Below, piece after piece: positions 488-63,732 of a stretch of DNA of 64,000 nt. Position numbers and translations under genes: made by a program. The DNA is from Chiloscyllium plagiosum (taxonomy: Eukaryota), in contig NC_057719.1 of assembly GCF_004010195.1 (NCBI RefSeq), positions 9,220,037 to 9,284,036 on the forward strand. Reading direction: 5' to 3'. The notes under the pieces were generated by a model, which saw only the letters and a program-made list of their open reading frames with translations, did not search any database and had not been told where the DNA came from. Every line of letters begins with the position of its first letter. The stretch's first letter is position 1.

Positions 488-841
488 TCTCCAGCTTCCT
501 CATTTCCCCTCCCCCCACCTTATCTCAGTCCCAACCCCCGGATTCAGCACCGCCCTTTGACCTGCAATCTTCTTCCTGACCTCTCCGCCCCCACCCCCTC
601 TCCAGCCTATTACCCTCACCCTCACCTCCTTCCACCTATCATATTCCCAGCACCCCTCCCCCAAATTCCCACCCCCTATCCTTTATCTCAGCCCACTTGG
701 CACACCAGCCTCATTCCTGAAGAAGGGCTTATGCCCGAAACGTCGATTCTCTTGCACCTCGGATGCTGCCTGGCCTGCTGTGTTTTTCCAGCACCACATT
801 TTTCGACTCTGGTCTCCAGCATTTACAGTCCTCACTTTCTC
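488..841 (+). mobile_element. Penelope-like element 3' fragment (family A) with hammerhead
   Basis: C-rich 3' region then tail GGATGCTGCC...CTCACTTTCTC; flanked by 16-bp TSD CTAAATTGTC(A/G)GCAGT at 472-487 and 842-857; same family as 36316-36701. Confidence 0.85.
713..748 (+). ncRNA. Minimal hammerhead ribozyme motif (PLE family A)
   Basis: ATTC CTGAAGA A GGGC-TTAT-GCCC GAAACGTC GATT; intact core, predicted cleavage after 744. Confidence 0.75.
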
Positions 842-7265: not shown

Positions 7266-7740
7266 TTGCACATTGAGTGTCAACATCCTGGAGGTTACCA
7301 CAGACCAGAAACTGAACTAGGCCAGTCATATAGCTACAAGTACAGGTCAGAGGCTGGGAATTTTGCGGTGGGTAACTCACCTCCTGACTCCCCAAAGTCT
7401 GTCCACCATCTTCAAGGCACTAGTCAGGAGTGTGATGGAATACTTCCCACTTGTCTGGATGGATGCAGCCCCAACAATACTCAAGAAGCTTGACACTATC
7501 CAGGACAAAGCAGCTGACTTGATTGGCATCACATCCAGAAGCATCCATCCGTCCACCATCGATGCTCAGGAACAGCAGTGTGTACTATCCACAAGACGCA
7601 CTGCAGAAATTCATCAAAGATCCTTAGATAGCACCTTCCAAGCCCACTACTTCCACCTCGAAGGACAAGTGCAGCAGATACATGGGAACACCACCACCTG
7701 CAGATTTCCCTCCAAGCCATTCACTATCCTGACTTGGAAA

Positions 7741-8153
7741 CTACACGGCATCAACATCGACTTCACAAGTTTCCAAATCTCCCCTCCTGCCACCTCATCC
7801 CAGATCTAACCCTCCAACTTGACACCACCCTCTTGCCGTGTCCTACCTATCCATATGCATTCCCACCTACCCACTCCACCATCCCCACTGACCTATCACA
7901 ATTACCCCACAACTGCATCCACCTATTGCCTTCATACCAACCTTCCCTCCCCAGCCCTGACAGTTGCCTGAGGCGGGAATTGAACCCGGGTCTCTGACGC
8001 TGTGAGGCAGCAGTGCTAACCACTGTGCCACCGTGCTGCCCCTATCTCTCATCCCCCTTCACATTCCTGATGAAGGGTTCTGCCTGAAATGTCAATTCTC
8101 CTGCTTTCAGATGCTGCCTGACCTGCTGTGCTTTTCCAGCGGCACCCTTTTTG
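7741..8153 (+). mobile_element. Penelope-like element 3' fragment
   Basis: HGINIDFTSFQIS resembles the PLE endonuclease C-terminus, followed by C-rich region and decayed hammerhead tail at 8062-8097; GACTTGGA on both sides; HE1 head nested at 7958-8042. Confidence 0.75.
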
Positions 8154-8262
8154 ACTTGGATATGTGTCCTTCATTGGGTTAAAATCCTGAAACTGTTGGC
8201 ATTGGTCCATTTACACTAAATGGACTGCAATGGTTAAAGAAGGCAGCTCACCATCACCTCCT

Positions 8263-9224: not shown

Positions 9225-9450
9225 TCAGACAGTGCTTGAGAAGCTCAGCAGGTCTGACATCATCTGCAGCTAGAGAAACAGAGCTAACATTTTGGTCTGA
9301 AACGACACTTCTTCAGAACTGCAGGTCATACCAAACTCAAGCCATTAGCTCTGTTACCCTCTCCACAGATGCTGCCAGACCTACAGTGCTTCCCTAGCAC
9401 CTTCAGTGCTTATTCTTGATGTCCAGCATCTGCAGTATTCTGCTTTTATT
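9225..9450. mobile_element. Penelope-like tail fold-back insertion (family E), diverged
   Basis: CTCAGCAGGTCTG.CATCATCTG followed by inverted CAGATGCTGCCAGACCT...CAGCATCTGCAGTATTCTGCTTTT. Confidence 0.6.
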
Positions 9451-12769: not shown

Positions 12770-13165
12770 AAAAATTCATTCATAGGATGCACATGTCAGT
12801 CTATTTATTGCCCATCCATAATTGCCCAGAGGACAGGCAAGAATCTACCATATTGCTGTGTGCCTGGAGTCACATGTAGGTCAGACCAGGTAAGGAGTGC
12901 AGTTTCCTTCCCTGAAGGACAGAGGCAGATGTTTTTTTTTCCTGACAACTTGTTTAATGACATGATCATCACCAGACTCTTAATTCCAGATTTTCTTTTT
13001 AATTGAATTCAAATTCCACCATCTGCTGTGGCGGGATTTGAACACTGGATCTTGTTGGATGCTGCCTGAACTGCTGTGCTCTTCCAGCACCACTGATCCA
13101 GAACCCAGAGCATTACGCAGTCTTTGGAGTAATAGTCTAGAGGTAATACAGGTAGGTCATCGCTT
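12770..13165 (-). mobile_element. tRNA-derived SINE, second family, with a short PLE-tail insert (about 13055-13102)
   Basis: SINE core interrupted by GGATGCTGCCTGAACTGCTGTGCTCTTCCAGCACCACT. Confidence 0.75.
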
Positions 13166-18133: not shown

Positions 18134-18425
18134 GGATGTGGAGGTGCCGGTGTTGGACTGGGGTGGACAAGGTCAGAAGTCACACGACACCAGGTTATAG
18201 TCCAACAGGTTTATTTGAAATCACAAGCTTTCGGAGCGCTGCTCCTTTGTCAGGTGAAGTTTGGACACCTTCACTTCAGCTCTGATGAAGAGTCAGCTAT
18301 ACTCGAAACGTTCGCCAGCTTTCTCGCTACGGATGCTGCCTGACCCGCTGTGATCTCCAGCATTTTTTGTTTTCAGGAGTCAGGATTCTACCTGTCGAAG
18401 GAGCAGCGCTCCAAAAGCTTGTGAT
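18134..18425. mobile_element. Composite PLE-tail insertion: family B inverted pair with a family C tail in the centre
   Basis: Family B antisense 18134-18260, family C 18275-18376, family B sense remnant 18388-18425; three hammerhead-like motifs. Confidence 0.65.
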
Positions 18426-19665: not shown

Positions 19666-19740
19666 ATCAAGAGTGTGGTGTTGGAAAAGCACAGCCGGTC
19701 AGGAGAATCGATGTTTTGGGCATAAGCCCTTCATCAGGAA
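19666..19740 (-). mobile_element. Short PLE family A tail insertion
   Basis: Reverse of ATTCCTGATGAAGGGCTTATGCCC...; TSD-like GAATA(C/T)ACTGCCT on both sides. Confidence 0.7.
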
Positions 19741-19990
19741 TATACTGCCTGGTTTGGTTCTGACTTGTAAGAACTAAGGTTCAACCTGATCAAGTCCTCA
19801 TATTGCCTCATTTCCAAGATTTTTTTATTTCAAGAATTCATTAAAAATATTTTTGTATATATACGCAGTCACAAACACAGTTCTGTTCTGTATGGTAGCC
19901 TATTAGGAAACAAACTAACATTAGAGTTTGACTCTACCCAGGCAAACAAGACCTTGCTTACATATACAAAACTGCATTTACATGGTTTTC

Positions 19991-25219: not shown

Positions 25220-27440
25220 TCCGAGTCATACAGCATGGATGCAGACCATTTGTTCCAACTAGCCCAAGCCTACAATATTCCCAAACTAAACTATTCCCAC
25301 CTGTCTGCATTTGGCCCACATCCCTCCAAGCCTTTCCTTTCATGCACTTATCCAAATGTCTTTTAAATGTTGTAACTGTGTCCACCATTTCCTCTGAAGT
25401 TCATTCCACACACTAACCACTCTCTGTATAAAGAATTTGTTCATGTCCTTTTTAAATTTTTCTCCTCTCACCTTAAAGATGTGCCCCCTAGTTTTGAATT
25501 CCTACACCCTAGGGAAAGGACCCTTACTGTTTATCTTATTTGTGCCCCTCATGATTATTTAAACCCCAATTAGGTCATCTATTGGGACATAATTTTTAAC
25601 CGTTTCACCACATTCCACTGCTTGGAATTTTACACCACATCATCCCTCAACCTCCTACTCTCCAGTGAAAAAAGTCTGAGTCTATCCAACCCTATTTTTA
25701 AATCTCAAACCCATAATTCCTGGCAACATCCTGATAAATCTTTTTTTTCTTCTGAACCTTCTCCAGCTTAATAATCTCCTTCCTACAACAGGGTGACCAG
25801 AAATGGGCACAGTACTTCAGAAGAGGTCTCACCAATGTCCTGTACAACCTCAATATGATGTCCCAACTCCTATACTCAAAGGTCTGAGCAATGAAGGCAA
25901 GCATGCTAAACATCCCCTTAACCACCCTGTCTACCTCTGACACAAATTTCAAAGGGTGTGTACCAGAACTCCGAGGTCCCTCTACAACATTATCCAGGGC
26001 CCAACCACTAATTGCATAAGTCAAGCCTTTGTCTGTTTTGCCAAAGTGCAATTCTTTGTATTTATCCAAATTAAACTCCGTCTGCTGCTCCTCAGCCCAT
26101 TGACCCAGTTGATTAAGATTCCATTATGATCTTCATCAATGTCCACCAGGACACCAATTTTGGTGTCATCCATAAACTTATTGACCATGCCTTCTAAATT
26201 CTCATCCAAATCATTTATATAAATGACAAACAAAAGTGGACCCAATACCGATCTCTGTAGAACACTGCTGGTCACGGGCCTTCAGATCGAGAAATGGTCC
26301 TCCATCACTACCCTCTGTCTCTTACCATCAAGCCAATTTTGTATCCAAGACAAGCTCACCATGAATTCCATGTGATCTTACTTTACTAATTAGTCTACCA
26401 GGCAGAACCTTGTCAAAGGCTGAACCTTGTCAAAGGCTTTACGAAAGTCCAAGTAAACAACATCTAACACTTTACCCTTATCAATCTTTTTGGTTATTTC
26501 TTAAAAAAACTCAAATTTATGAGGCATGGTTTCCCTCACACAAAACCATGCTGACTATGCCTAACCACTGACCTGCTGTGCTTTTCCAACACCACTCTAA
26601 TCCAAACTTCCTATTCCTAATCATTCCCTGCTCTCTAAATACATGTAAGTCCTATCTTTCAGAATCACCTCCAATAACGTACCCAACACCGACGTCAGAG
26701 GCTTCTCCTCACAGCCTTTACAACCCTTCTTCTTCCAACACATCACCAATTATTACAAATGACACAAATATCTCTCCACACTTCAGGCTCACTGCCTTTA
26801 TTCCTGATGAAGGGCTTTTGCCCGAAACGTCGATTTCGAAGCTCCTTGGATGCTGCCTGAACTGCTGTGCTCTTCCAGCACCACTAATACAAATATTTCT
26901 GCCAGGGTCCCCACAATTTCTTCCCCAGCTTTCTACTATGTCCTGAGATACACCTGATCAGTTCCGGGCGATTTATCCACCTTTATATTTTCTAAGATCT
27001 CCAGCACTTCCTCTTCTGAAGTGTGAACTATTTTCAAAACATTAATATTACCACTAATACAAATATTTCTGCCAGGGTCCCCACAATTTCCTCCCCAGCT
27101 TTCTACTATGTCCTGAGATACACCTGATCAGGTCCGGGAGATTTATCCACTTTTATATTTTCTAAGATCTCCAGCACTTCCTCTTCTGAAGTGTGAACTA
27201 TTTTCAAAACATTAATATTTATTTCCCTCTGTTCTCTAGCCTCCATATCTTTCTCCACTGTAAAAGCTGGCATGAAATATTCCATTCAATATCTCTCCCA
27301 ACACCTGAGGTTCAACAGAAAGATGACCTATTTAATCTTTAAAGGATCCTACTCTCTCATTAGTTGCTCTTTTTCTCTCAATATACTTGTAAAATCTCTT
27401 TGGATTATCCATAACCTCATCCACCAAGGCGATTTCATAT
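25220..27440 (-). mobile_element. Long degenerate CR1 LINE (RT region) with PLE-tail inserts and a 170-bp tandem duplication
   Basis: SVLGPLLFVIYINDL...KFMDDTK RT motifs and LYRTLVRPLLKYC..FWSP; many frameshifts. Confidence 0.88.
26801..26835 (+). ncRNA. Minimal hammerhead ribozyme motif (PLE family A)
   Basis: TTC CTGATGA A GGGC-TTTT-GCCC GAAACGTC GA; intact core. Confidence 0.75.
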
Positions 27441-27932: not shown

Positions 27933-28682
27933 GAGTCATAAAGATGTACAGCATGGAAACAAACCCTTTGGTCCAACTTGTCCATGCCAGCCAGATATCT
28001 TAAATTAATCTAGTCCCATTTGCCAGCATTTAACCCTTATCCCTCTAAACCCTTCCTATTCATGTATCCACCCAGATGCCTTTTAAATGTTGTAATTGTA
28101 CCAGCCTCCACCACTTCCTCTGGCAGCTCATTCCATACACACACTACCCTCTGTGCGAAAAGGTTGCCCCTTAGGTCCCTTTTAAATCTTTTCCCTCTCA
28201 TCCTAAACCTAAGCCCTCTAGCTTTGGACTCCCCCATCCTGGGGAAAAGACCTTGCTATTCCTCATATCCATGCCCCTCATAATTTTATAAACCTCTATC
28301 AGGTCACCCCTCAGCCTCCGACGTTCCAGGGAAAACAGCCCCAGCCTGTTCAGCCTCTCGCTACAGCACAAACTCCCCAACCCTGGCAACATCCTTGCAA
28401 ATCTTTTCTGAACCCTTTCAAGTTTCACAACATCCTTCCGATAGCAGGGAGACCAGAACTGAATGCAATATTCCAGAAGTGGTAAAAACAATGGCTGCAG
28501 ATGCTGGAAACCAGATTCTGGATTAGTGGTGCTGGAAGAGCACAGCAGTTCAGGCAGCATCCAAGGAGCTTCGAAATCGACGTTTCGGGCAAAAGCCCTT
28601 CATCAGATATTCCAGAAGTGGCCTAACTAATGTCCTGTATAGCTGCAACATGACCTCCCAACTTTGAAACTCAATGCCCTGA
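27933..28682 (-). mobile_element. CR1 (HER1-like) LINE 3' fragment interrupted by a PLE tail
   Basis: EYCIQFWSPCYRKDVVKLERVQKRF...LRGDLIEVYKIMRG. Confidence 0.9.
28483..28606 (-). mobile_element. 124-bp PLE family A tail insertion with intact hammerhead core
   Basis: Starts CTGATGAAGGGCTTTTGCCCGAAACGTC on the minus strand; exact 15-bp TSD ATATTCCAGAAGTGG at 28468-28482 and 28607-28621. Confidence 0.88.
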
Positions 28683-29777: not shown

Positions 29778-29994
29778 ACTTGATTAAGTGTGGCACTGAG
29801 AAAAAGCACAGCAGGTCAGGCAGCATCTGAGGAGCAGAAGAGTTGATGTTTTGGGCACAAGCCCTTCATCAGGCGGGTCCTGCCTGGTACATCAACTCTC
29901 TTGCTCCTCAGATGCTGCCTGACCCCCGTGCTTTTTCCAGCACTGTACTTTATCGACCTTTGACTCCAGCATCTGCAGTCCTCACTATCGCCTG
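29778..29994. mobile_element. PLE family A fold-back insertion inside an old CR1
   Basis: Inverted arms; exact 14-bp TSD CTATACAAATGCAG at 29764-29777 and 29995-30008. Confidence 0.8.
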
Positions 29995-30354: not shown

Positions 30355-31210
30355 TTACAACCTGCTCAGAGATGCTCTGGAACAGGTGGGACTTGAATCT
30401 GGACCTCCTGGCTCAGAGATAGGGACAATACCACCACACAACTGGACCTTCCAAGACCCCAAATCCATCTCATTTCTGAACTGCCTATCTTGGTTCTAGA
30501 CTTCCTAAACAGGGGAAACATCTTACTTGCATATCCCTTTCAATATTTTGTAGATATTTTAAAATCAGATGTTCAGATGTGTTTTGACACATTCCTGGAG
30601 CAGGGAGAATTTGAACCCAGGTCTTTCTGCTCAGAGATAGAGACACTAGAACAAGAACTCTTTTTAATGTATTTTGTGCCATGCAATTTGGGGAAATATG
30701 GAGGAATCACAGGTAGATAATTTCTAATCAACCTGTTCAGTGATATTGTTACACCCCTCTGGAACAGGTAGGACTTGAACTCAGAACCCCCTTGTTCAGA
30801 GATAGGGTCACTACCAACGTGCTACTAGATCTCTAGCCCCAGGGCCAGGATATTTCTGAATGAACCCGTTCAGAGGTGTTACAGCACACTCCTGGAGCAG
30901 GTAGGACTTGAACCCAGACCTTCTGGCTTAGAGACAGGAACCCTAGCCCCAGAGCTGGAATATTTCTGAATGAACTTGTTCAGAGATGTTACGGCATACT
31001 TCTGGAGTAGGTGGGACTTGAACCCAGACCTCCTTGCTCAGAGACAGGAGCACTACCACCATGTTACAAGAACACTAGCCCCGGAGCTGGAATATTCCTG
31101 AATGAACCTGTTTAGAGGTGTTACTGCACACCTCTGGACTAGGTGGGACTTGAACCCAGACCTCCTTGCTCAGAGATAGGGATATGACCAGTGTGCCACA
31201 AGGACACTCG
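30355..31210 (-). repeat. Array of six short tRNA-like SINE units (about 95-135 bp)
   Basis: Recurrent GGACTTGAACCCAGACC (reverse B-box GGTTCAAGTCC) and A-box-like TGTGGCACA.TGGT; the last three units are head-to-tail. Confidence 0.8.
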
Positions 31211-36315: not shown

Positions 36316-36974
36316 GGAGAAAGTGAGGACTGCAGATGCTGGAGATCAGAGCTGAAAATGTGTTGCTGGAAAAGTGCAGCAGGTCAGGCAGCATCCAAGG
36401 AACAGGAGAATCGACATTTCAGACATGAGCCCTTCTTCAGGAATGAGGAAAGTGTGCCAAGCAGGCTAAGATAAAAGGTAGGGAGGAGGGACTTGGGGGA
36501 GGGACGTTGGAAATGCGATAGGTGGAAGGAGGTTAAGGTGAGGGTGATAAGGTGAGGGTGATAAGGTGAGGGTGATAGGCCGGAGTGAGGGTGTGGGTGG
36601 ATAGGTCAGGAAGAAGATTGCAGGTTAGGAAGGTGGTGCTGAGTTCGAGGGTTGGGACTGAGACAAGATGGAGGGAGGGGAAATGAGGAAACTGGAGAAA
36701 TNNNNNNNNNNNNNNNNNNNNNNNNNNNNNNNNNNNNNNNNNNNNNNNNNNNNNNNNNNNNNNNNNNNNNNNNNNNNNNNNNNNNNNNNNNNNNNNNNNN
36801 NNNNNNNNNNNNNNNNNNNNNNNNNNNNNNNNNNNNNNNNNNCGCAAGTTTTGCATTTCTTGCGGTTGCATGGGAAGGTGCCGGGAGTGGAGGTTGGGTT
36901 GGTGGGGGCTGTGGACCTGACGAGGGAGTCACGGAGGGAGTGGTCTTTTCGGAACGCTGATAGGGGAGGGGAGA
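36316..36974 (-). mobile_element. Penelope-like element 3' part with coding remnant, spanning an assembly gap
   Basis: Minus strand encodes SPPLSAFRKDHSLRDSLVRS...GTFPCNRKKCKTC, resembling the Cys linker before the GIY-YIG endonuclease, then the family A C-rich region and tail. Confidence 0.82.
36702..36842. other. Assembly gap (141 N)
   Basis: Run of N. Confidence 1.
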
Positions 36975-37584
36975 ACTGTTAGAGGTGTAGTCACTGGAAC
37001 AATGTAGGAAACTACAGGAACAGAGCCACATAGCAACTCGGTGGAACCATTGGTGACCTGGCAACCTCTTCTGTATTTACCACCAACCTATGTCAAGTTG
37101 TTACATGTCCACTGCTTACAATGCACATCCACTGACTTATGTTGAAACTGCACCTTGCAATGGCCCCCTTGTCCTCACATTTCTTTAACTTTCACACTGA
37201 GGGGATCACTAGCTATTTGTTCCCAGCCCTACTTTCCATGGTGAAAGTGCTACCTGATTGAACCCATGTAAATCCACTCTGACAGAGACACACCCAAATG
37301 GGTAGTTGACCCAGCGATACTGAAGGGACAGTGGTATCATTCTGAGTCAGGGTGGTGTGTGGCTTGGAAGAAAACTCGCCAGCCGCAATGCTCCCATGCC
37401 TCTGTCACCCTCGTCTGTTAAGTGCTGCAGGTCACAGGTTGGAAGTTACAGTTGTAAAAGGATTGGCAAATTGCTCGAGTGAATCACGTAGATGGCACAT
37501 ACCAAAGGTGGAGGAGAGCACGTGGGTGTCAGTGGTTAGGGTGACTATCAAGCGAGCTGCTTCATCCTGGGTGATGTTGAGCTT

Positions 37585-37876: not shown

Positions 37877-37986
37877 AAAATCTTGATTGTTTGAGAAACT
37901 GCATGGATCTAGGCAAGTGAGAAATATTGCTGAAAAATGTGTTGCTGGAAAAGTGCAGCAGGTCAGGCAGCATCCAAGGAGCAGGG

Positions 37987-38024
37987 GAATCGACGTTTCG
38001 GGCATAAGCCCTTCTTCAGGAATG
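37987..38024 (-). ncRNA. Minimal hammerhead ribozyme motif within a PLE tail (about 37929-38028)
   Basis: Reverse complement CATTC CTGAAGA A GGGC-TTAT-GCCC GAAACGTC GATTC; intact core. Confidence 0.75.
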
Positions 38025-38827
38025 AGGATCCACAGTTTGCACAGATGCACACTAACCCAGAGTCCATGAACTAGGCTTTGATCCAGTATTTAAATAAAGT
38101 CATGGCCCCTTTTTTTACGACAAGACTAATTCTCGGCTGTTTGTGCTGGGGAGGTCAAGTTGCCCAGATCTGATTATATGGATTTGAGATTGATTTCCTG
38201 AGCTCATCCACCCCAGACCTTCCCTATTGCCTGTCCCACTTGTAAGCCACTAAACTTGGCAAATGGAAAATAGGCTCCTGTGTAAGAACAATGGAAGCCA
38301 ATTCATTAAAGCTGTCAAAAGGGAACTGGATACATACTTGAGAGGAGAAATTTGCAGGGCGACAGGGAGAAAGTGGAGGTAGTCAGGCTAATTGGACAGT
38401 ACTTGAACAGAGTTGACATAGCCATGATAGTTCAAACAGACTCCTTATGTGGTGTATTCGTCTGAGCCTTAACATAACATACTCTCATCTATCTCACATT
38501 AAACCATAATGGAGTTGCGATGGGAAAGCTGCCACTGGAGCACAGTAGCTACTGCCCAGAGTCCTAGATTAGTGCAGGTTATTCAGCGCTGACAATGAGG
38601 AACCCCTGGCTGAAACTGAAGTCCCAACAACCAACAGGAGTGCATTGCTCACCTAAAGAAGCACTCCAAGTGAGGATGCAAGACAGTGTGTTGCAATTGC
38701 TCCTGCTATTCTTATTTAAATAAAAGTTTACACCATTTCCAACTCAAATGCCTTTCTATCTCTTGCTTGCCTTGTATTGAACACCTCTGGGTTTCACTGC
38801 TAAAACATCTTTTGAGAGCTTCTAAAT

Positions 38828-39837: not shown

Positions 39838-40131
39838 TAGTCAGAAGTCACACAACGCTGGGTTATAAATCAACAAGTTTATTTGAAATCACAAGCTTTT
39901 GGAGAGCTGATGAACAAGCAGTGCTCCGGAAGCTTCTGATTTCAAATAAACCTGTTGGATTATAACCTGGTGAAAGTGAGGACTGCAGCTGCTGGAGATC
40001 AGAGTCGAGAGTGTGGTGCTGGAAAAGCACAGCAGGTTGGGAAGCATCTGAGGAGCAGGAGAGGACTATAACTGGTGTTATGTGACTTCTAACCTTCTCC
40101 ACCCCTATCCAACACTGGCACCTCCACATCA
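39838..40131. mobile_element. PLE family B fold-back insertion with a nested family A tail (about 39973-40062)
   Basis: Inverted GTCAGAAGTCACAC...TTTATTTGAAATCAC arms; nested insert flanked by GGA(T/C)TATAAC(C)TGGTG. Confidence 0.7.
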
Positions 40132-42282: not shown

Positions 42283-43807
42283 TTGCAGTCCTTAAAACCC
42301 TTCACTTCATGGAAGCCTATGGAGTGAATCTTAACAGGAGCCTCCTGATCCTAGCACTGGTTGAGGGACAATTCCAGATCAGGAACCCAGAAGTTGTTAT
42401 GTCCAAATGTTGAACTTGAATGGTTGTGGGGGGGGGGGGGTGGTGGCTAATCGGCAAACTGACACCAATTTAAGACTGAGACGAGAGGGAATTTCTTCTC
42501 TCAGAGGGTTGTGAGTCTTTGGAAGTCCTTGTGTATATTTAAGACTGGGATCGACAGATTCTTGGTTAGTCAACGAATCAAGGATCACGGGTAAAGGTCA
42601 GGAAAGTGGACGTAAGAAATGTTGGATCAGTCATGATCCTGCTGAATGGCAGAGCAGGCTGGAGGGGATGAACGGCCTACTTTACTGTCTTATTAATGAT
42701 GTAATATTTTAGCAAGAAGGTATTATCTGCTTCGATTGATCCATCTAACTCACCCAACTTTGCCCCGAAAGGGCCAAAGAAAAACTTGAATTCTGACAAG
42801 GCTGTCTCTAAACCCTTTATAGTCAATGTAATAACCATGAGGTGTATCCACTTCTGTAATGCTTACCTTGACCCTCCCTGCCTTCCATGAGCAGTAATTG
42901 GTGTCTCCACCACACTCAAGTGGATACAGAGGAAGGCAGTTTTCTGTTGATAATTTAATGGTGGACATTGGTGGGGCCGGGGCGGGGAATGTAGGATGGT
43001 GGCAGCATCAACCACAGACCCCAATCCCATTCTCCCTCCCTGCTATCAAAGGGGTACATGTCCTGATGGAGAAATTCAGCAGGTCTGGCAGCATCTGCAG
43101 AGGGCGGGGGGAGAGAGAGAGAGAGAGAGAGAAGTAGAGTTGATGTGTTGAGCACAAAATATGTTTTCTCTTTGGAACTACCTACAGTGATTTACACTGT
43201 GCCGCACCTACTTTACACTATTGGCAGAGGCAAAAGGGGCTAGATAAATGCAACATGTTGTTATTACTGAGCCACAATTCGGAGGGGAAGCTTGGTTGCT
43301 TTTCCCCACTCCCTAACCGACATTGATTGTACAAACCGCTTGCCTACTGTCTTTGCCAAATTTAACACAGAATTCCGCTTCTGCACCGATTGATCTATGT
43401 GCCTCTTTGCAGAGAGGAAGAAATAATGTCGCACACAGGTCCTGTTTGTCCACCTCTCCTGTGCTCAAATTGCATTGCATTAACCGCATCATTGTTCTTA
43501 TGCTGTCCCCACACAAGGTGACCCGCATAGCTAGCTCTGAGCCAAACAATTCCCTTTCCTCCCGAGAGATTTTAACGCTCCAAGTTCACCCAAGATGTGA
43601 ACTACCTCGCTTGCATTTCTCATTTATTCAAGGACATCATCTGTTCAGGGTTAATGGACATTGTCCTGGGTCAGTGATCTGATGGTCCCTGAGAAATGTC
43701 TGAGCTTGCTTGAGAGAACTGAGGTCATGTCTGCTCAGTTACGTGATGCTGTGGTGCCTCAAGAGGCACAACACACTGAGACTCAAGTGATAAGATCAAG
43801 AGAGATA

Positions 43808-44478: not shown

Positions 44479-44949
44479 ATCCTCCATCCAGGCCCAACAT
44501 CACAGAATTGCTGCGACACAGGAGGAAGCCATTCAGTCCAATGCACTCATGACATCACCTACTGAGTGTCTTACTTCGGCCATTCTCCTGTCTTCGCCCT
44601 GTACAGTCTTCCTTTTCAAACTTATAAAAATTTTTATTTGTTCCCAGGATGTGGCTATCGCTGGCCATGCCAGCATTGATTCCCTGTCCCTTATTGCCCA
44701 GAGGGTAGGTCAGTGGAGGTGTAGCCTTTTGGGGCCAATCAGGCAAAACCAGGTGAGGAAGGTGGTGAGGTGGGGGTGGTGGACAAAGGGAAGGGAATGT
44801 GTCCATCATGAGAACGAAGGTTGATGGTCGAAGCTGTCTTCCAGCAGAGACAGTCTTGTTGCTGGGTTGTGCCCCATCACCCTCAAACCTTGGGGTGAGG
44901 GTTGGGTGCAGAGACGTCAGTCTCTCCTGAGTCTCTCGTCTTTTTTTTA

Positions 44950-45163
44950 GGATTAGAGTGGTGCTGGAAAAGCACAGCAGGTCAGGCAGCATCTGAGGAG
45001 CAGGAAAATCGACGTTTTGGGCAAAAGTCCGTCATCGGGAGTCAGGCATTTGCCCGAAACGTCGATTTTCCTGCTCCTCGGATGCTGCCTGACCTGCTGT
45101 GCTTTTCCAGCACCACTCTCATCTAAGCTTTGGTTTCCAGCATCTGCAGTCCTCATCTTTGCC
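44950..45163. mobile_element. PLE family A fold-back insertion
   Basis: Inverted arms of about 75 bp meeting at hammerhead remnants 45005-45070. Confidence 0.8.
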
Positions 45164-45906
45164 TCTCTTGTCTTTCTGCCTGGCCTTTCTGCTGCAGTTA
45201 ATAATATCATGAAATGGTTGCTAAGAGCCTCAACTGGCCGAAGGAGAACTGCTCTGCCTACCCTGACCATGCGAAATGGCCAGTGGTTGCAAGAAGACAA
45301 GAAGCTCTGCAGAGAGTTCCATCATTGTCCTCAGTGAATACTTCACCCTCAAGCCTTGCTGTACAAAATAAAGACAGGAACTAGTCATTCAACATCTTGC
45401 TATCAGTTTGATTTTGTCATGTCCAAAATAACTGCTGTGCTCTCTGAGATAGCGAACATGACTGCATTTTAGACAGTGATTCAGTGAACATGTTGTGTTT
45501 TAGGACATTGCCAAAAAGATGTGACAAGGAGCTGTTTCAATGCTAATGCTTTCCTTGGTTAGTGACAAAAAAAACCTGCCGATGCTGGAATCCAAAACAG
45601 ACAGGCAGGAGGCTGGAAGAACACAGCAAGCCAGGCAGCATCAGGAGGTGGAGAAGTCAGTGTTTTGAGGGTACTCCTTCTTCAGGACGGCTTTCGAATG
45701 CTTTCCTTGAGCATTTTAAAGATTTGGACCATGCCCCCTACGTTCCTCGGCGGAGATTCTAAAAGGACATTGGCATACAACAACAACTTGCATTCATGCA
45801 GCTCCGCCAGTGTAAAGAAATTATAAAGCTTCACAGAAGCGTTATAAAGCAGACTTTGGCATCACTTCATGGGATATCACGACAGGCTGCCCAAGGCTTG
45901 GTCAAA

Positions 45907-46120
45907 AGAGAAAGTGATGTTAGAGATCAGTGTCAAAAAGTGTGGTGCTTGAAAAGCACAGCCAGTCAGGCAGCATCCGAGGAGCAGGAGAGTCGACGTT
46001 TCGGAAATAAGCCCTTCATCAGAACATGCTTGATGACGAGCTTATGCCTGAAACATCGACTCTCCTGCTTCTTGGATACTGCTTGACCTGCTGTTTTCTT
46101 TCCAGTGCCTCACTTTTTGA
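45907..46120. mobile_element. PLE family A fold-back insertion
   Basis: Inverted arms; 16-bp TSD CCAAGG(C/T)TTGGTCAAA at 45891-45906 and 46121-46136. Confidence 0.8.
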
Positions 46121-46753: not shown

Positions 46754-47827
46754 TCGTCCATGAAACAATAGACCAGCAAAAAGCAGCATCTGTAGTAAAA
46801 ACAGGAGAGCCCTTTTCATTGCTTTGCCCATGGTAGTTCAGATGACATATGTAATGGACAAAGTTTTATGCTTGCTGTGGAATTGGGGTTTTGTACAAAG
46901 GCATCTCCATTCTGTTGCAACCTAATTGCTCATTTGAAAGAGTTTGCAGCCTTACCAGTACTGACCATTCCTCAGTTCGAGGTGAGAAAGTTCCAGCAAA
47001 AAATCCTTTCTCTTTGAAGTCTTCTGAAGTAATACAAGCTGATCTTGATGACAGACATTTATAGGAATAATTATAACCAGATGTAGATAGAGATCTAATG
47101 AGCAGGAGAGTTATCCCCAGGGATCTGAGCAATATGTCTCCTTCAATTGACATCCAATTATCTAGTTCTGACCACTTTGTGATTGTGGGAGTTTGCTGAG
47201 TAGAAACTGGCACATTACACCAGTGACCACACTCCCAAAGCATCTCATTGCTATTAATGCCTGGAGGCATCCTGAAGTTCAGAAAGCTGCTACAGAAATG
47301 CAAGTCTTTAACATCAATAGTTCATGAGGTAAGCTGATGGATCTGCACTCTGATCCACATTAAGATCTCACATGGCATCTCTCACAGTGAATATTTTTCT
47401 AGTTTCGGAGGAGATTACAGGTAATCATAAAATACCTGAATTAAGATGAGGAGCAAGACATTCAGGTTCCCTCTGAGAGGTGAAGTTCCTCCTCATTCCC
47501 ATCTTCAATGGTAGACCCCATACCTTGACAAAGAATCACCTTGTGTTTCCACAAGACAGGAAACATTCTCTCCATTCCCACCCTGTCAAGTCTCCTCAGG
47601 AGCTGATATGTCCAATAAGATGGTACAGGCCCAATCTGTTTCTCGTCAGACAACATCTTCATTCCTGGAAATTGCTGCAGAAACTCAGCAGCTCTGGTAG
47701 TATCTGTGGAGAAGCAGTGTCACTGGACCTGAAACATTAACTCTGCTTTCTCTCCACAAATGCTGCCAGACCTGCTGTGTTTCTCTATCTTCTTCTGTTT
47801 TTGTTTAAGATTTCCAACTTCTGCGGC

Positions 47828-49849: not shown

Positions 49850-51103
49850 CCAGTTACTAGTGGTGTGCTACAAGGATCTGTTTTAGGACCACTGCTGTTG
49901 TCATTTTGTCATTAGACGCAGGCATAGGTGGATGGATCAGTAAATTTGCAGATGACACTAAAGTCGGTGGAGTAGTGGACAGTTTGGAAGAATGTTACAG
50001 GTTGCAGGAGGACTTGGATAAACTGCAGAATTGGGCTGAGAGGTGGCAAATGGAGCTCAGTGCAGCTAAATGTGAGGTGATGCACTTTGGGAAGAATAAC
50101 AGGAAGGCAGAGTACTGGGTCAATGGACAGATTCTTGGTAGTGTGGATGTGCAGAGGGATCTTGGAGTTCATGTGCATAGATCTCTGAAAGTTGCCACCC
50201 AGGTGGATAGTGCTGTGAAGAAGGCATACAGTGTGTTAGGTTTCATTGGTAGAGGGATTGAGTTCCGGAACCGCAATATCATGCTGCAACTATACAAAAC
50301 GCTGGTGTGGCCACACTTGGAATATTGTGTACAGTTCTGGTCGCCCCATTACAGGAAGGATGTGGAAGGTGCAGAGGAGATTTACCAGGATGTTGCCTGG
50401 TCTGGACGGAAGGTCTTGTGAGGAAAGGCTGAGAGACTTGGGTCTGTTCTCATTGGAAAGAAGGCTAAGGGGGGATTTGATAGAGACATACAAGATGATC
50501 AGAGGATTAGATAGGATAGACAGTGAAATACTTTTTCCTAGGATGATCACGTCAGCGTGTACGAGGGGCATAACTACAAATTGAGGGGNNNNNNNNNNNN
50601 NNNNNNNNNNNNNNNNNNNNNNNNNNNNNNNNNNNNNNNNNNNNNNNNNNNNNNNNNNNNNNNNNNNNNNNNNNNNNNNNNNNNNNNNNNNNNNNNNNNN
50701 NNNNNNNNNNNNNNNNNNNNNNNNNNNNNNNNNNNNNNNNNNNNNNNNNNNNNNNNNNNNNNNNNNNNNNNNNNNNNNNNNNNNNNNNNNNNNNNTTTTC
50801 CTAGGATGATGATGTCAGCTTGTACGAGAGGGCATAACTACAAATTGAGGAGTGATAGATTTAAGACAGATGTCAGAGGCAGGTTCTTTACACAGAGAGT
50901 GGTAAGGGCATGGAATTCCCTACCTGCCAATGTAGTCAACTCAGCCACATTAGGGAGATTTAAACAATCCTTCGATAAGCACATGGATGATGATGGGATA
51001 GTGTAGGGGGACGAGCTGAGAATAGTTCACAGGTCGGCACAACATCGAGGGCCGAAGGGCCTGTTCTGCGCTGAATTGCTCCATGTTCTATGTTCTATGT
51101 TCT
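49850..51103 (+). mobile_element. Young CR1 LINE, RT domain to 3' tail, spanning an assembly gap
   Basis: ISKFADDTK, LQEDLDKLQNWAERWQM, LYKTLVWPHLEYCVQFWSP; (ATGTTCT)n tail. Confidence 0.93.
50589..50795. other. Assembly gap (207 N)
   Basis: Run of N. Confidence 1.
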
Positions 51104-54228: not shown

Positions 54229-54440
54229 GCAGAAGTGAGTACTGCAGATGCTGGAGGTTAGAGTCAAGATTAGAGTGGTGCTGGAAAAGTGCAGCAGGTC
54301 AGGCAGCACCCGAGGAGCAGGAGAATCGATGTTTCAAGCAAAAGCCCTTTCCTGATGATGGGCCTTTGCCCAAAACGTTGATTTTCCGCCTCCTCGGATG
54401 CTGCCTGATTTGCCATGCTTTTCCAGCACCACTCTACTCT
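54229..54440. mobile_element. PLE family A fold-back insertion inside a short tRNA-like SINE
   Basis: Exact 14-bp TSD TGTGCCATACCATG at 54215-54228 and 54441-54454; inverted arms. Confidence 0.82.
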
Positions 54441-56639: not shown

Positions 56640-56771
56640 TGAAACTTTATTGCTGGAACAGCACAGCAGGTCAGGCAGCATCCAGGGCCCTGGATGCTGC
56701 CTGACCTGCTGTGCTGTTCCAGCAATAAAGTTTCAACTTTGATCTCCAGCATCTGCAGACCTCACTTTCTC
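56640..56771. mobile_element. PLE family A insertion containing a perfect 100-bp palindrome
   Basis: Palindrome 56638-56737 centred on GGG|CCC; exact 15-bp TSD CTGGAAAAATATGGT at 56625-56639 and 56772-56786. Confidence 0.9.
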
Positions 56772-57031: not shown

Positions 57032-58161
57032 CAAAAAACTCAATGTTACCAACAGCCTAGTACAACCATGGGGCCTCCATATCACAGAAAAACTCAATGC
57101 TACAGACGGCCCAGCAGAGAAAGTTAAAAATAAAGGAAATCAAAGAGAAGGATAAACAGGATAAAAGAAAATCCAAAGGTTTCTTAACAGGTTACAAAGA
57201 GCAAAAGGATAAGGAAAAAGTGAGACCGATCAGCTTATACTTTTGACTTGGTGGATAAAGCCTAGAACTTTGTAGACACTTTAAAATAGACCAATTGGTC
57301 TGAAGAATACACTTTATTTTCCTTCTTTCCCTGTGTTTTCCCTTTTCTTTCTCTTTCCCTAATAATTAAAACAAAACAAAAATCTTGGAATGTGCTGTTC
57401 CTGGTATATTTTTATCAGTGGAGTTTATTGTGGGAACTTTTGTGGGTGCCCTTTGTTGTTTTCTCTTTTTTTTTGTTCTTTTTCGCTTTTAATCACAAGT
57501 AGGGGTGACACGGAGCTGGAGATGGGTGGAGTGCTTATCCTGACTTTGTCTTCTTTTGTTGACTCAAGAATCATCTCCCTATTTATTTACTTTTTCTTGC
57601 CTAAGGCTGAGGCACAGTCTGGGTCTGGAAGAGCTGTGCAGGGGTGGGGGGAGGGGGGGTGGGGGGGTAGGGTGAGTGCCCCCTATGGGCAGGGGGGAGA
57701 GTCTCCCATTCAAGGTTTTCTTTGTAGTGTTTTGGTTGCAATAGTTGTTTGCAGTTATGATAGAATAGTTTTTGTACACAGAATTTTGTGACTCTATGAG
57801 TCTCCATTTACTTGTGCTTGATGCACTGCAAGCAGGGTTCTCCCTCCTGGGGGTTCAAGAGTCTCTGAAAGGGGATATGGCTAAATGTCTTTTTAAATGG
57901 TGCATCTGGAACATCAAGGGAAGTAATTCGCCTGTTAAGAGGAAAAAAAATGCTTTCTAGCCTTCAGAGGGAAAGGGTTGACATTGCCCTGTTTCAGGAA
58001 ACCAATCTTGACAATGGGGAACACCTGAGGTTACAACAGGGGCGTTATAATCAGATCATCTTTTCATTCTTTACCACTTATCCAGAAGTTAAGTAGCTGT
58101 ACTTATCCAGAAGAATCTTCTGTTCACATTATTAGAGGAGGTGAAAGATGAGCAAGGGTTC

Positions 58162-58197
58162 ATTCCTGAAGAAGGGCCTGTGCCCGAAACGTCGAAT
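58162..58197 (+). ncRNA. Minimal hammerhead ribozyme motif, best-formed copy
   Basis: ATTC CTGAAGA A GGGC-CTGT-GCCC GAAACGTC GAAT; stem I ATTC/GAAT fully paired; predicted cleavage 58193/58194. Confidence 0.8.
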
Positions 58198-59416
58198 CTC
58201 CTGTTCCCTGGATGCTGCCTGACCTGCTGTGCTGTTCCAGGATTAAGGTTCAGTTTGTGATACTGAAGGCCCTGATACATGGGGAGGAATGACAGCTTAA
58301 ATATCTACTGTCCTCCGGCGCACCCCATCAAATTTTTGATTAGTGCCTTTTCTAAGTTGAGTACTTTTGGAACATGGCACATTATTTGGAGGGGGAGAAT
58401 TTTAATTGCCTTTTAGATCCGACATTGGACAGTTTGCTAGTGAGCCCCCAGCTATTTCTTCAAAGGCCAAGCAGGTGACTGACTTATTCGAGGAGTTGGG
58501 GCTGGTGAACCCTTGGTGATGTCTTCACCCTACTGGTAGAGACTGCACATTTTTTTCAAACCTGCATAAATGTCACACGAGGATAGATCTTTTTCTAGCT
58601 CCCTCAATCCTTCTGGATTCAATTATAGGTTGTAAAATTGGGAACACAGTTATCTCTGATCACACGGCGAACTATATTTGTAAGTTAAGGCCAAAGGTGA
58701 GGGGCTAGATTTGCGGCACCGGCATCTGGATCCTTTTCTCCTTAAGAATTCCAAATTTGTGGAATACCTTTTTGAGGGAAGTTCAGGAGTTCTTGACTGA
58801 TGAAAGGCATTTGCCCGAAAGGTTTTCCTGCTTCTCGGATGCTGCCTGACTTTCTGTGCTCTTCCAGCACCACACTCTTGACCAACAACTCAGGCACGGC
58901 TAGTAGTCTGCCAATGCTATGAGAAACCACGAAGGCCTTTGCTAGAGGATTAGCTATTTCCTATTCAGCTAGCTGGAAACAACAGGAGGGGGAACAGGAG
59001 CGTTTATTTGAGAGGTGGCTGAAAGCCGCTGAGGCAGCAAGTTTTGCGGTGCCTTTGGTGACTAAGCTACAGCGGATCATGGCCCTTCAGACCGCAAAGG
59101 AAGAACTTGCTTTTGCTAGACAAAGGCTGTTCGAGTATGGGGATAGGCCAGAGAGATATTTAACGTGTCTGACGAGGAAAAAGCATGCTCCCCAATCCAT
59201 TACTGCAGTTAGAGACAGCACCGGGCTCCTTACATACAATGCCAAAAGGATTAATGAGGCTTTTCAGAGTTTTTACTCTGAATTGTATCGGTCTGAATGT
59301 TGCGAGGATGGAAGGGCCAAGATGGAAGGCTTTTTAAAAAGCCTGGACCTCCCAGGGGTAACCTTGGAACAGACCCCTCTCCTCAATGCCCCCGATGGTT
59401 CAGGAAATACAGGAGG

Positions 59417-59564
59417 TAAAATCAATGACTGCAGATGCTGGAAACCAGATTCTGGATTAGTGGTGCTGGAAGAGCACAGCAGTTCAGGCAGCATCCAAGG
59501 AGCAGCGATTTCGCTGCTCCTTGGATGCTGCCTGAACTGCTGTGCTCTTCCAGCACCACTAATC
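59417..59564. mobile_element. PLE family A fold-back insertion in L1
   Basis: 57-bp perfect arms with a 2-nt loop; exact 16-bp TSD CAGGAAATACAGGAGG at 59401-59416 and 59565-59580. Confidence 0.9.
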
Positions 59565-61888
59565 CAGGAAATACAGGAGGCAGCTAGGTAACTTCAAAGT
59601 GGGAAAGCTCCTGGCCCCGATGGTCTATAAGGAGTTTACAGGGATTCTGTCAGGGCCGATGTTGGAGATATACAATCACTCCTATATGCATGAATACTTA
59701 CCACCATCTTTGAGAGAAGCTAATATTTAATTAATTCTTAAGAAGGGGAAGGTTCCGAAGGATTGTGCCTCATACAGGCCCATCTCTGTATTAAATTTAG
59801 ATTTTAAGATTCTGTCTAAGATGTTGGTGCTGAGATTGGAGAAGGTGTTGCCCTACAGTATATTGTCAAAGAGGACCAGACATTTTTAAGGGGCCGTAGG
59901 TCCTCTACTAATATGATAAGGCTGCTGAATATTATCCAAGTTTGTCAGCAATGATTGGTTCAGGGGTTGGTGATTTCCTTAGATGCAGCGAAAGCATTTC
60001 ACCAGGTGGAATGGACATATCTCTTATGTCTTTGAGCGGCTTGGGCTGGGTGGGGCCTTTGCTAGGTGGGTGGAGGCTTTATATCGCCACCCTCTGGCCA
60101 GGGTCATCATCAACAGAGTGAAGTCTGAGAACTTTAGACTTGGTAGGAGTCGTCGTCAAGGCTGCCCTCTCTCACCATTGTTGTTTACGTTGGTGATAAA
60201 GATGCTGGCAGAGGCCATTCGTCAGAACGTCCGCTTAACCACTTCGGAAGTGGGATCGAGGGCACACAAGATTACACTATATGCGGATGATGTCCTTATG
60301 TTTTTATCGGACTGATGACCTCCGTACCCCATCTGTATTAATGTATTAATTTGGGGCTTTTTCAGGATATAAGACCAACTTTGCATTGTCAGAGGCAATG
60401 CCTTTGGGGGACCTGAAGGAAGTGCCAGAGGTTGAATGTGGTCCTAGGTTCTCCTTTAAGTGGTCATGGGTAGGTTTCTGATACCTAGGTATCTTTATTA
60501 CCCCCATGCTTGATCGGTTATTTCAGACCAACTTTGCTCACCTGATCGACAATATTTGGTAGGGTCTCCAGAGATGAGACGCTCTTCCAATTTTGTGGTT
60601 GGGCCAAATAGCCCTTAAGATGAATGTCCTTTATCCCATGCATATGCTCCCTGCAATGTTTCACAGGTCAACATTGCAAAAACTTATGGATTGGTTTAGT
60701 TCCTTCTTCTGGTGTCATGGGCAGCCCCTCAAACTTACTAAATTGCAGTTGCCTCAAAGATGGGGAGGAGTTGATTGTCCAGGCATCAGGAGGTATCAGT
60801 TGAGTTCCCTGTTGTCCTTTGTGTGCGATTGGGAGGTAATGATCCAAACTCAATATGCAGCACTTAATTCAGTGCAAAGCCCATCCCTCAGTGGTGAAAG
60901 GGGCCATACATTTGGAAGTCTATTATTCTTTTTATTGGCTGGCACATTTTTTACTGTAAAAAATACCATAATTATAAAGAAGTGGTGGAGAGGGGCATTT
61001 GCATCAGCAGCTATGGTGGGTTTCAAACCTCCACTCTCAGAACATTAACCTGGACCTCTGGAGTCAAGTAATGTCAACACCGTGCCCCCTTATGCAGATA
61101 GGGAGTAGGATCATCGATGATGTACCATCAATACATATATTCTTTCATATTGGATTTCAGCTTCCCTTGGGGACGGATGGGAGAAAAGTGGAAAGTGGGT
61201 CTACACGTTGTCTGGGAAGAAATGGGAGGAAGGGGAGAGATGAAGTTACTGCAGCTGTAACCAGGAACAAATAAAGGTGCTTTGTAAATGCAAGTTATTG
61301 CTGTAAATGGCATGCAAGTGTTAACATATTCCCAGATCTCAACTCCTCATTTCTGAGGCTCTGTTTTTTTGGGAGGGGTTAAGTTCACAGTTTGTTTATT
61401 TTTCGTCCCACGTGTCCCCTAGTATTGAAATCGGAGCTATTCCAAAGGTGTAAAACCTGGTATATAACGTAATGACGAATGTAGGTGGTTTATTTTGCAA
61501 ATGTGTCATCAAACAAACAGCAATGTCATTCCACCTACTGTTGTGGGAGTGCCTATTGTTTTAGATTATGTCGCAGTAGAGCAAAGGCCCATGAGCTGGA
61601 AAGGTCGTTTAGCTCAGTTAGCTGGACGGCTGGCTTGGGAGCCAGAGTAACACCAACAGCCTGGGCTAATTGTCAAATGAGTACAGTGTAAAGTTTACAA
61701 GTCGCCACTTATGGCCACTTAGGTGAAGATACATACATATTTGATATAAAATAGGAAAAAGGTTCAGTATTAGAATGAAAAGGAAAAATGAAGAAAAGAA
61801 AATGAAAGGATACAATTTATAGTCCTTCCACCCCAGTTCATGCCGGCCATCCAGACCACACCAGGCCAAGTGTCTAGATCATGATGGG

Positions 61889-63603: not shown

Positions 63604-63732
63604 GAGTTCTGAGGAAGGGTCACTGGACCTGAAACAGCAACTCTGATTTCTCTCCAAAGATGCTGCCTGACCTGCTGAGTTTTTCCGTGAATTTCCGTTT
63701 TTGTTTCTGATTTCCAGCATCCGCAGTTCTTT
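63604..63732 (+). mobile_element. PLE-like tail (family E) with hammerhead-like motif
   Basis: GAGTT CTGAGGA A GGGTC-ACTG-GACCT GAAAC AGC AACTC, then GATGCTGCCTGACCTGCTGAG. Confidence 0.65.

Follow-up and report, generated by a model that had tools for sequence, protein, structure and literature searches.

Hammerhead motifs in a 64-kb stretch of the shark Chiloscyllium plagiosum: probably decaying 3' ends of a Penelope-like retrotransposon

According to Cervera and de la Pena (2014; PMC4209133), minimal hammerhead ribozymes (min-HHR) occur in the Xena, Poseidon and Neptune elements of fish, coelacanth (about 4,000) and Xenopus (about 9,000); as far as the available portions of that paper and of PMC6765202 go, the monomers did not cleave and the dimers were weak in vitro, with the pairing of two palindromes completing helix III. 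For the Poseidon element PAc of the anole, the accessible sections of Frangieh et al. (2024; PMC11167929) state that the hammerhead cleaves only in the presence of the element's protein, that it is dispensable for insertion in vitro, and that no reads end at the hammerhead site. Penelope-like elements with an endonuclease (EN+) are known, from the accessible accounts of Craig et al. (2021; PMC8557442) and Arkhipova et al. (2013; PMC3846280), for an insertion architecture of strong 5' truncation, an inverted 5'-truncated copy, a one-sided tail of 30–40 bp, target duplications and palindromic junctions, which architecture is explained by two internal starts of reverse transcription in the part of PMC11167929 at hand; a CX2-5CxxC linker between the reverse transcriptase (RT) and the endonuclease marks the Neptune and Nematis clades (PMC8557442, accessible text). 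Finally, animal non-LTR retrozymes, whose type I hammerhead is related to that of the Penelope pseudo-LTRs, were found in the one cartilaginous fish sampled, according to the available text of a preprint (bioRxiv 10.64898/2026.07.22.740005).

The window analysed here is a stretch of 64,000 nucleotides of contig NC_057719.1 of Chiloscyllium plagiosum (assembly GCF_004010195.1, positions 9,220,037 to 9,284,036, forward strand), and all coordinates below are counted from its first letter. We read its hammerhead motifs, with a probability of roughly 0.88, as parts of 3' ends, truncated at their 5' side, that a Penelope-like retrotransposon (likely of the Neptune type) left behind, the hammerhead decaying and probably inert in the scattered copies. 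Judged from its sequence, the motif belongs to the min-HHR class: as in the motifs described in the accessible text of PMC4209133, it is of type I without helix III or loop 3, with palindromic positions 15.2–16.2, an extra base lying between 9 and 10.1, a G10.1–C11.1 pair and a short helix I; and it shares with them a location in terminal repeats, the occurrence as thousands of solitary copies, and the pairs on opposite strands. Unlike in that report—where sharks are unnamed in the text and in the searchable part of the supplement—the abundance in the shark looks higher, and helix II has 4 bp in the family under study (family A), as opposed to the 7–8 bp given there for the Schistosoma motifs. 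Our literature search, which reached the supplements only in part, returned no paper on shark Penelope hammerheads. With PAc, as presented in the accessible sections of PMC11167929, the shark copies have in common a stem I, a stem II and a core within a pseudo-LTR, together with two starts of reverse transcription that give an optional tail; PAc, however, is an active and tested element of the Poseidon clade, whereas the shark copies are dead fragments with a cysteine linker of the Neptune/Nematis type. The EN+ architecture outlined above recurs here in all those respects, with the difference that in the shark the 5' ends are piled up at the edge of stem I, a feature that the accessible accounts do not describe (PMC8557442; PMC3846280). 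The retrozymes, in turn, are head-to-tail arrays with one ribozyme per unit in the available preprint text, whereas the window holds single and inverted units only. The features of the window are as follows.

58162–58197 (+): the best-preserved minimal type I hammerhead, with a 4-bp stem I, an exact core, an extra A after A9, a 4-bp stem II with a CTGT loop, the ACGU palindrome and the GUC site at 58193/58194.
About 58160–58245 (+): the tail-less insertion that carries this hammerhead and interrupts a dead L1-like ORF2; no target duplication was found for it.
488–841 (+): a Penelope-like 3' end with the last ORF codons, a pyrimidine-rich 3' region, the hammerhead (713–748, core intact, U.U in stem I) and a tail; 16-bp target duplication; sits in a SINE-like repeat.
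26776–26888 (+): a short tail-less insertion with the hammerhead at 26800–26835 (intact core, TTTT loop, U.U in stem I); 12-bp target duplication.
28483–28606 (−): a short insertion beginning at C3, with core and stem II intact and a tail; C3 lies directly behind the 15-bp target duplication, and the copy's own 5' strand of stem I is absent; 98.9% identical over 88 nt to the 26804 copy, which is 1.7 kb away on the opposite strand.
37930–38028 (−): a short tail-less insertion with the hammerhead at 37988–38023 (intact core, TTAT loop, U.U in stem I).
45907–46120 (both strands): a head-to-head pair with one 16-bp target duplication; on the minus arm the core is intact (C3 at 46022), stem II is weakened and a tail is present, and the plus arm is decayed.
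36329–36978 (−): the longest relic, with the RT–endonuclease linker C-X4-C-X2-C (36844–36972), an assembly gap, the ORF C-terminus, the 3' region, a CpG-decayed hammerhead (C3 at 36440) and a tail.
7720–8161 (+): an ORF C-terminal remnant (7720–7830) and a decayed hammerhead (C3 at 8066), interrupted by another repeat.
19666–19742 (−): a short insertion, decayed, with a target duplication of 13 bp and with its 5' junction overlapping the edge of stem I.
29778–29992 (both strands): a head-to-head pair with two decayed hammerheads and a tail on the plus arm only.
39967–40062 (−): an insertion without a hammerhead and with a tail, beginning about 4 nt behind the cleavage site.
44944–45163 (both strands): a head-to-head pair; minus arm with U4C and G12A, plus arm starting from stem II and tailed.
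54231–54440 (both strands): a head-to-head pair; plus arm with G12A and tail-less, minus arm starting from A9 and tailed.
56640–56771 (both strands): a head-to-head pair whose arms begin behind the hammerhead, forming a near-perfect hairpin, with the tail on the plus arm.
58797–58879 (+): a decayed insertion beginning at C3, with the cleavage triplet deleted.
59419–59564 (both strands): a head-to-head pair whose arms begin near the cleavage site, with the tail on the minus arm.
13055–13103 (+) and 26568–26598 (+): family A stubs without a hammerhead, from the profile search.
18275–18363 (+): a related family with other stems and an AACGUU palindrome; exact core, broken stem I.
63605–63727 (+): a decayed copy of a related family in which stem II has 5 bp and stem I differs.
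9232–9436, 43055–43097, 45576–45687 and 47672–47825: further decayed relatives, from the profile search.
About 57885–61050 (+): the dead L1-like ORF2, with endonuclease-like fragments, a linker and RT pieces; context, outside the Penelope-like element.
30376–31193: six copies of a repeat of 61 nt that resembles a tRNA B box, spaced at 110–218 nt.

The five copies that the initial annotation had described as CUGA(A/U)GA-A-GGGC-N4-GCCC-GAAACGUC are all present and displaced by at most 1 nt—stem I of the second begins at 26800, and the fourth spans 37988–38023—with TTAT, TTTT or CTGT as their loop, as had been described; the scissile bond of the 58162–58197 copy had likewise been placed correctly at 58193/58194, after GUC. 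A strict descriptor—consisting of an exact CUGANGA core, an optional extra base, a paired stem II, GAAA, a palindromic 15.2–16.2 and UH—gave seven matches in the 64-kb window, six of them in family A (C3 at 717+, 26804+, 58166+, 28606−, 38019− and 46022−) and one in another family (18282+). All seven carry the extra A between positions 9 and 10.1 and a CG at the palindromic 15.2–16.2, with no helix III loop, and the G10.1–C11.1 pair is G-C or G.U in each of 12 aligned arms. The annotation's identification of a minimal type I hammerhead with a loop-less palindromic stem III in Penelope-like tails is supported. A profile built from nine window copies found 32 arms in the window, all of them standing single or head-to-head and 24 belonging to family A, and none in the reversed window. 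The segment 1755–1779, where the core pattern occurs with one mismatch, lacks the family flanks and was left out. The window also contains no fewer than three other Penelope-like families that carry a hammerhead and differ in their stems; two of these appear to use the AACGUU palindrome together with a GUU site. Exact-pattern scans of metagenomic and of viral contigs gave no locus in either.

A chance match or an assembly artefact might be suspected from the Rfam search of the window, which returned no hammerhead family among 19 matches at E ≤ 1, and from the folding z-scores of the copies, which are only −0.8 to −2.7 (the minimum-energy fold of the 58162 copy has the stem I plus stem II shape, its stability not being above that of shuffles at z −0.8). 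The probability of such an origin is nevertheless close to nil: third-order Markov controls of the strict descriptor contained no match in 99 of 100 sequences and a single match in the remaining one, the reversed window was empty in the profile search, the stems covary between families, and the repeat is carried by tens of thousands of contigs from two species.

As to the parent element, three arms extend back into ORF remnants. The peptide encoded at 36844–36978 (−) shares 79% identity with a whale-shark protein of 469 aa that matches RVT_1 and GIY-YIG, a similarity indicative of a cartilaginous fish; a tblastn search with that protein matched 36972–36844 (E 7e-15), 7720–7830 (8e-6) and 487–555 (0.004), each match lying upstream of a hammerhead on the same strand. 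The coding remains in the window are linker and C-terminal remnants, with the RT and the GIY-YIG domain both in the whale-shark relative; the cysteines of the C-X4-C-X2-C linker are at 36844–36870. From these remnants the parent is likely a Penelope-like retrotransposon of the Neptune clade, which assignment depends on a linker motif common to Nematis because neither an intact element nor an RT domain of the element's own is present in the 64-kb window. The assembly has gaps at 36702–36842 and about 50600–50800 (348 N in total), the first of which hides the endonuclease part of the longest relic.

Seventeen family A arms reach the hammerhead, six with the whole core and 11 mutated or cut, and seven more begin at or behind the cleavage site, so that the earlier count of about eight decayed copies was too low. 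The same annotation had spoken of copies keeping a full hammerhead core, and those cores are indeed exact, but a full core is not a full ribozyme: stem II is perfect in five of the six arms with the whole core, and an unbroken 4-bp stem I is found only in the 58162 copy, those at 713, 26800 and 38023 having a stem I of 2 bp, a U.U and 1 bp. This U.U is a subfamily trait, since T occupies the position in 12 of the 17 arms.

We counted differences in 22 arms of this one window, after leaving out the near-identical partner arms 56630 and 59504 as well as eight arms of other families. Differences from the majority affected 4/152 cells of the non-CpG core versus 83/946 of the 3' flank (p 0.006), whereas, when only changes private to one arm were counted, the core had 4/152 and the flank 30/946 (p 1.0); at the six CpG positions of the hammerhead 20 of 99 cells were changed, every one of them by transition. 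The core is no better kept than the block at 761–780 behind the hammerhead (4/152 versus 24/403 differences, p 0.13), and thus conservation alone does not single out catalysis. The subfamilies vary in flank and loop around a constant core, in line with selection on master elements, and single copies decay at an equal rate everywhere, in agreement with neutrality; with the latter result covering 22 arms of one window, a few copies elsewhere in the genome may form a domesticated minority. The block at 761–793, with its equivalents in all families, is preserved like the core and is common to families with differing stems; able to pair with a second CAGCA copy in the tail, it may be a protein-binding or priming signal. 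With respect to covariation, in 12 hand-picked related arms of four families—four of these arms being from outside family A, and the structure having been derived from the same sequences—both partners change in five of the eight pairs, and pairing is present in 84% of the cells versus 7–53% with the partners slid; in stem I, three of the four pairs change on both sides between families.

For a minimal type I hammerhead of this form, cleavage after GUC is predicted only when it dimerises or when the element's protein is there. According to the literature, two motifs would complete a shared helix III through their palindromes—here ACGU:ACGU, of 4 bp—and a family A dimer would consequently rest on the four ACGU pairs plus two short stems I. 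Selection, we infer, acted on a few active master elements, in which two pseudo-LTR copies and the protein would be present on one RNA, the scattered copies being presumable by-products of a reverse transcription that, starting some 50 or 95 nt behind the cleavage site, would in most cases stop inside the hammerhead or just before it.

The insertions themselves were flanked by target duplications of 10–18 bp in 11 of 15 instances and of 7 bp in a twelfth. Six family A insertions are head-to-head pairs inside one duplication, with the tail on one arm in all six. When reads and contigs were aligned to 481–1170 at 80% likeness, two 3' ends, at 797/798 and 841–843, were among the top loose ends of the genome-wide reads and contigs. 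In the pairs 29778–29992, 44944–45163 and 54231–54440 the arm that reaches further 5' is clearly the tail-less one and the shorter arm is tailed, this relation being marginal at 45907–46120 and 59419–59564, and the pair 56640–56771 being symmetric. Two separate primings fit the head-to-head pairs better than the folding back of one cDNA; snap-back as the sole origin was rejected on account of the three pairs with a tail only on the shorter arm.

In the coordinates of the 488–841 copy, 10 of the 24 family A arms start within 705–718 (scan-corrected P 0.03, the ends having been assigned manually and the two arms of a pair being interdependent), and no more than three start at or just behind the cleavage site, which was therefore discarded as the main class of 5' ends. 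The base with which stem I begins, 713, is among the loose ends listed for each of the three runs that gave data—X1, X12 (from a second species) and X21 (poly(A) single-cell RNA), with 348, 396 and 225 records, respectively, of low agreement—and from the bin 688–710 to the bin 711–733 the depth rises 14-fold in X1 and about 10-fold in X12 and X21, part of which step is due to subfamilies that differ upstream of 713. Since the 5' ends gather around the border of stem I and seldom fall on the cleavage site, the copied RNA would seem to have been mostly uncleaved, and the pattern suggests that this border is where the RNA ends or is preferentially joined. In the accessible portions of the Penelope-like element literature searched we found no description of such a pile-up of 5' ends. 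Contig joints between 744–751 and 711–714 occur in two species; these joints may be head-to-tail hammerhead duplications of 35–44 nt, that is, natural dimers, or else inversion junctions.

If, alternatively, the short units constituted a separate non-autonomous family akin to retrozymes or SINEs, starting at the hammerhead and mobilised in trans, then the clustered starts within 705–718, the loose end at 713 and the rise in depth would be expected. We consider this proposal unlikely, however: the window has no head-to-tail array, the 5' ends differ from copy to copy, the same edge recurs in several subfamilies, three copies extend into the ORF, the 3' ends are the two standard tail positions, and the depth step has the partial explanation just given. 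Somewhat less unlikely, but still doubtful, would be that the motif owes its preservation in the masters to some other role—as a site of protein binding, or as a promoter or template-end signal—and never cuts. Such a role would agree with the scarcity of arms beginning at the cleavage site, with the U.U mismatch within the four positions of stem I in most subfamilies, and with the in vitro insertion of anole-element hammerhead mutants (PMC11167929, accessible sections); but the catalytic positions are all kept across four families while the stems covary, and relatives do cleave, either as dimers or with protein, in the available texts of PMC4209133 and PMC11167929. We return to the reading of truncated Penelope-like 3' ends with a decaying hammerhead, and consider its abundance.

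In run X1 the summed contig depth was about 7 x 10^6 over 711–756 versus 5–9 on the unique flank, which figure is not a copy number, and in X12 the depth was similar. Allowing for contig overlap, we take the copies to be of the order of 10^4 to 10^6. The very large genome-wide set that had been proposed for this motif finds support as a statement on the abundance of the repeat but not as one on working cleavage sites. Among 13 million records of X21, about 2% of that run, there were 3,412 family reads, in both directions, with no depth on the unique flank at 964–1170; nor was there any place where many molecules ended, the fragmented poly(A) reads making this a weak test for a pile-up of RNA ends. 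At the loose end behind 841 in X21, 185 RNA reads had one common flank holding AATAAA, and this flank would belong to a single well-expressed copy elsewhere in the genome, perhaps in a 3' UTR.

The initial annotation had further envisaged the copies as potential cleavage sites in introns that might supply one another's dimer partner. An intronic location was not borne out in the window: a Pfam scan of 298 stop-free frames—a scan that leaves room for small exons or for one large intron—gave no host exon but only RT pieces and two sub-threshold matches, and the 58162 copy is inside the dead L1-like ORF2. That ORF2 is host to the 58162, 58797 and 59419 insertions, i.e., to three Penelope-like insertions within 1.4 kb; its segment 58923–59588 matches human L1 ORF2p (E 3e-4), while its endonuclease part is presumed from motifs, a PDB search with that endonuclease-like frame (57869–58093) giving no match. 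As cleavage sites, the majority have been destroyed through truncation or the decay of CpGs, and core and flank mutate equally after insertion. As for partners, the distances between intact cores of one orientation are 26 and 31 kb on the plus strand and 8 and 9 kb on the minus strand, with one of the minus-strand cores lacking stem I and another having a weak stem II; moreover, antisense arms on the same transcript would form far stronger duplexes, of −69 to −177 kcal/mol versus about −21 for two sense motifs, and the six head-to-head pairs fold into long hairpins of −97 to −159 kcal/mol. The pairs at 56643–56732 and 59471–59549 are near-perfect hairpins just below the thresholds of microRNA families in Rfam and, if transcribed, possible sources of double-stranded RNA; we did not accept them as microRNAs, for these sub-threshold matches are the element's own inverted pairs.

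A dimer can be drawn for the 58162 copy, at −13.1 kcal/mol versus a cofold minimum of −18.3, and for the copies with U.U, at −9.3 versus minima of −21.9 or −24.6, in a model without the tertiary contacts of the core. This drawable fold, the six intact cores in 64 kb and the presence of the family in both directions in poly(A) RNA would be in keeping with a host-wide self-cleaving set, in which intact motifs among the dispersed copies pair through ACGU and cut host pre-mRNA. Nevertheless, the copies decay neutrally, 8–31 kb separate the intact cores of the same strand, and the dimer—held by 4 bp plus 2–4 bp and lying above the cofold minimum—is outcompeted by antisense arms; in addition, X21 displays no pile-up of RNA ends, for whatever that weak test is worth, dimers were of low activity in the accessible text of PMC4209133, and the anole-element reads had no ends at the site in that of PMC11167929. 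Altogether, cleavage on such a scale appears very improbable, and scattered copies that are 5'-truncated and probably inert continue to be our preferred explanation.

These motifs would gain in importance only with a demonstration that individual copies in the genome cleave RNA of the host. That an intact minority, with 58162–58197 as an example, should cleave transcripts of the host in vivo, with another copy or the element's protein completing it, we regard as improbable, with only a slightly better chance than cleavage across the whole set; were it true, a repeat numbering tens to hundreds of thousands would constitute a dispersed RNA-cleavage system of sharks, and the accumulation of insertion 5' ends next to stem I would represent a defined RNA end beside the ribozyme. 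For the family of elements, the window adds a shark-type genome, with a very high abundance of the motif, to a class described in 2014; and because the 5' ends cluster where stem I begins and seldom at the cleavage site, the numbers of insertions permit a statistical test of the role of the Penelope hammerhead.
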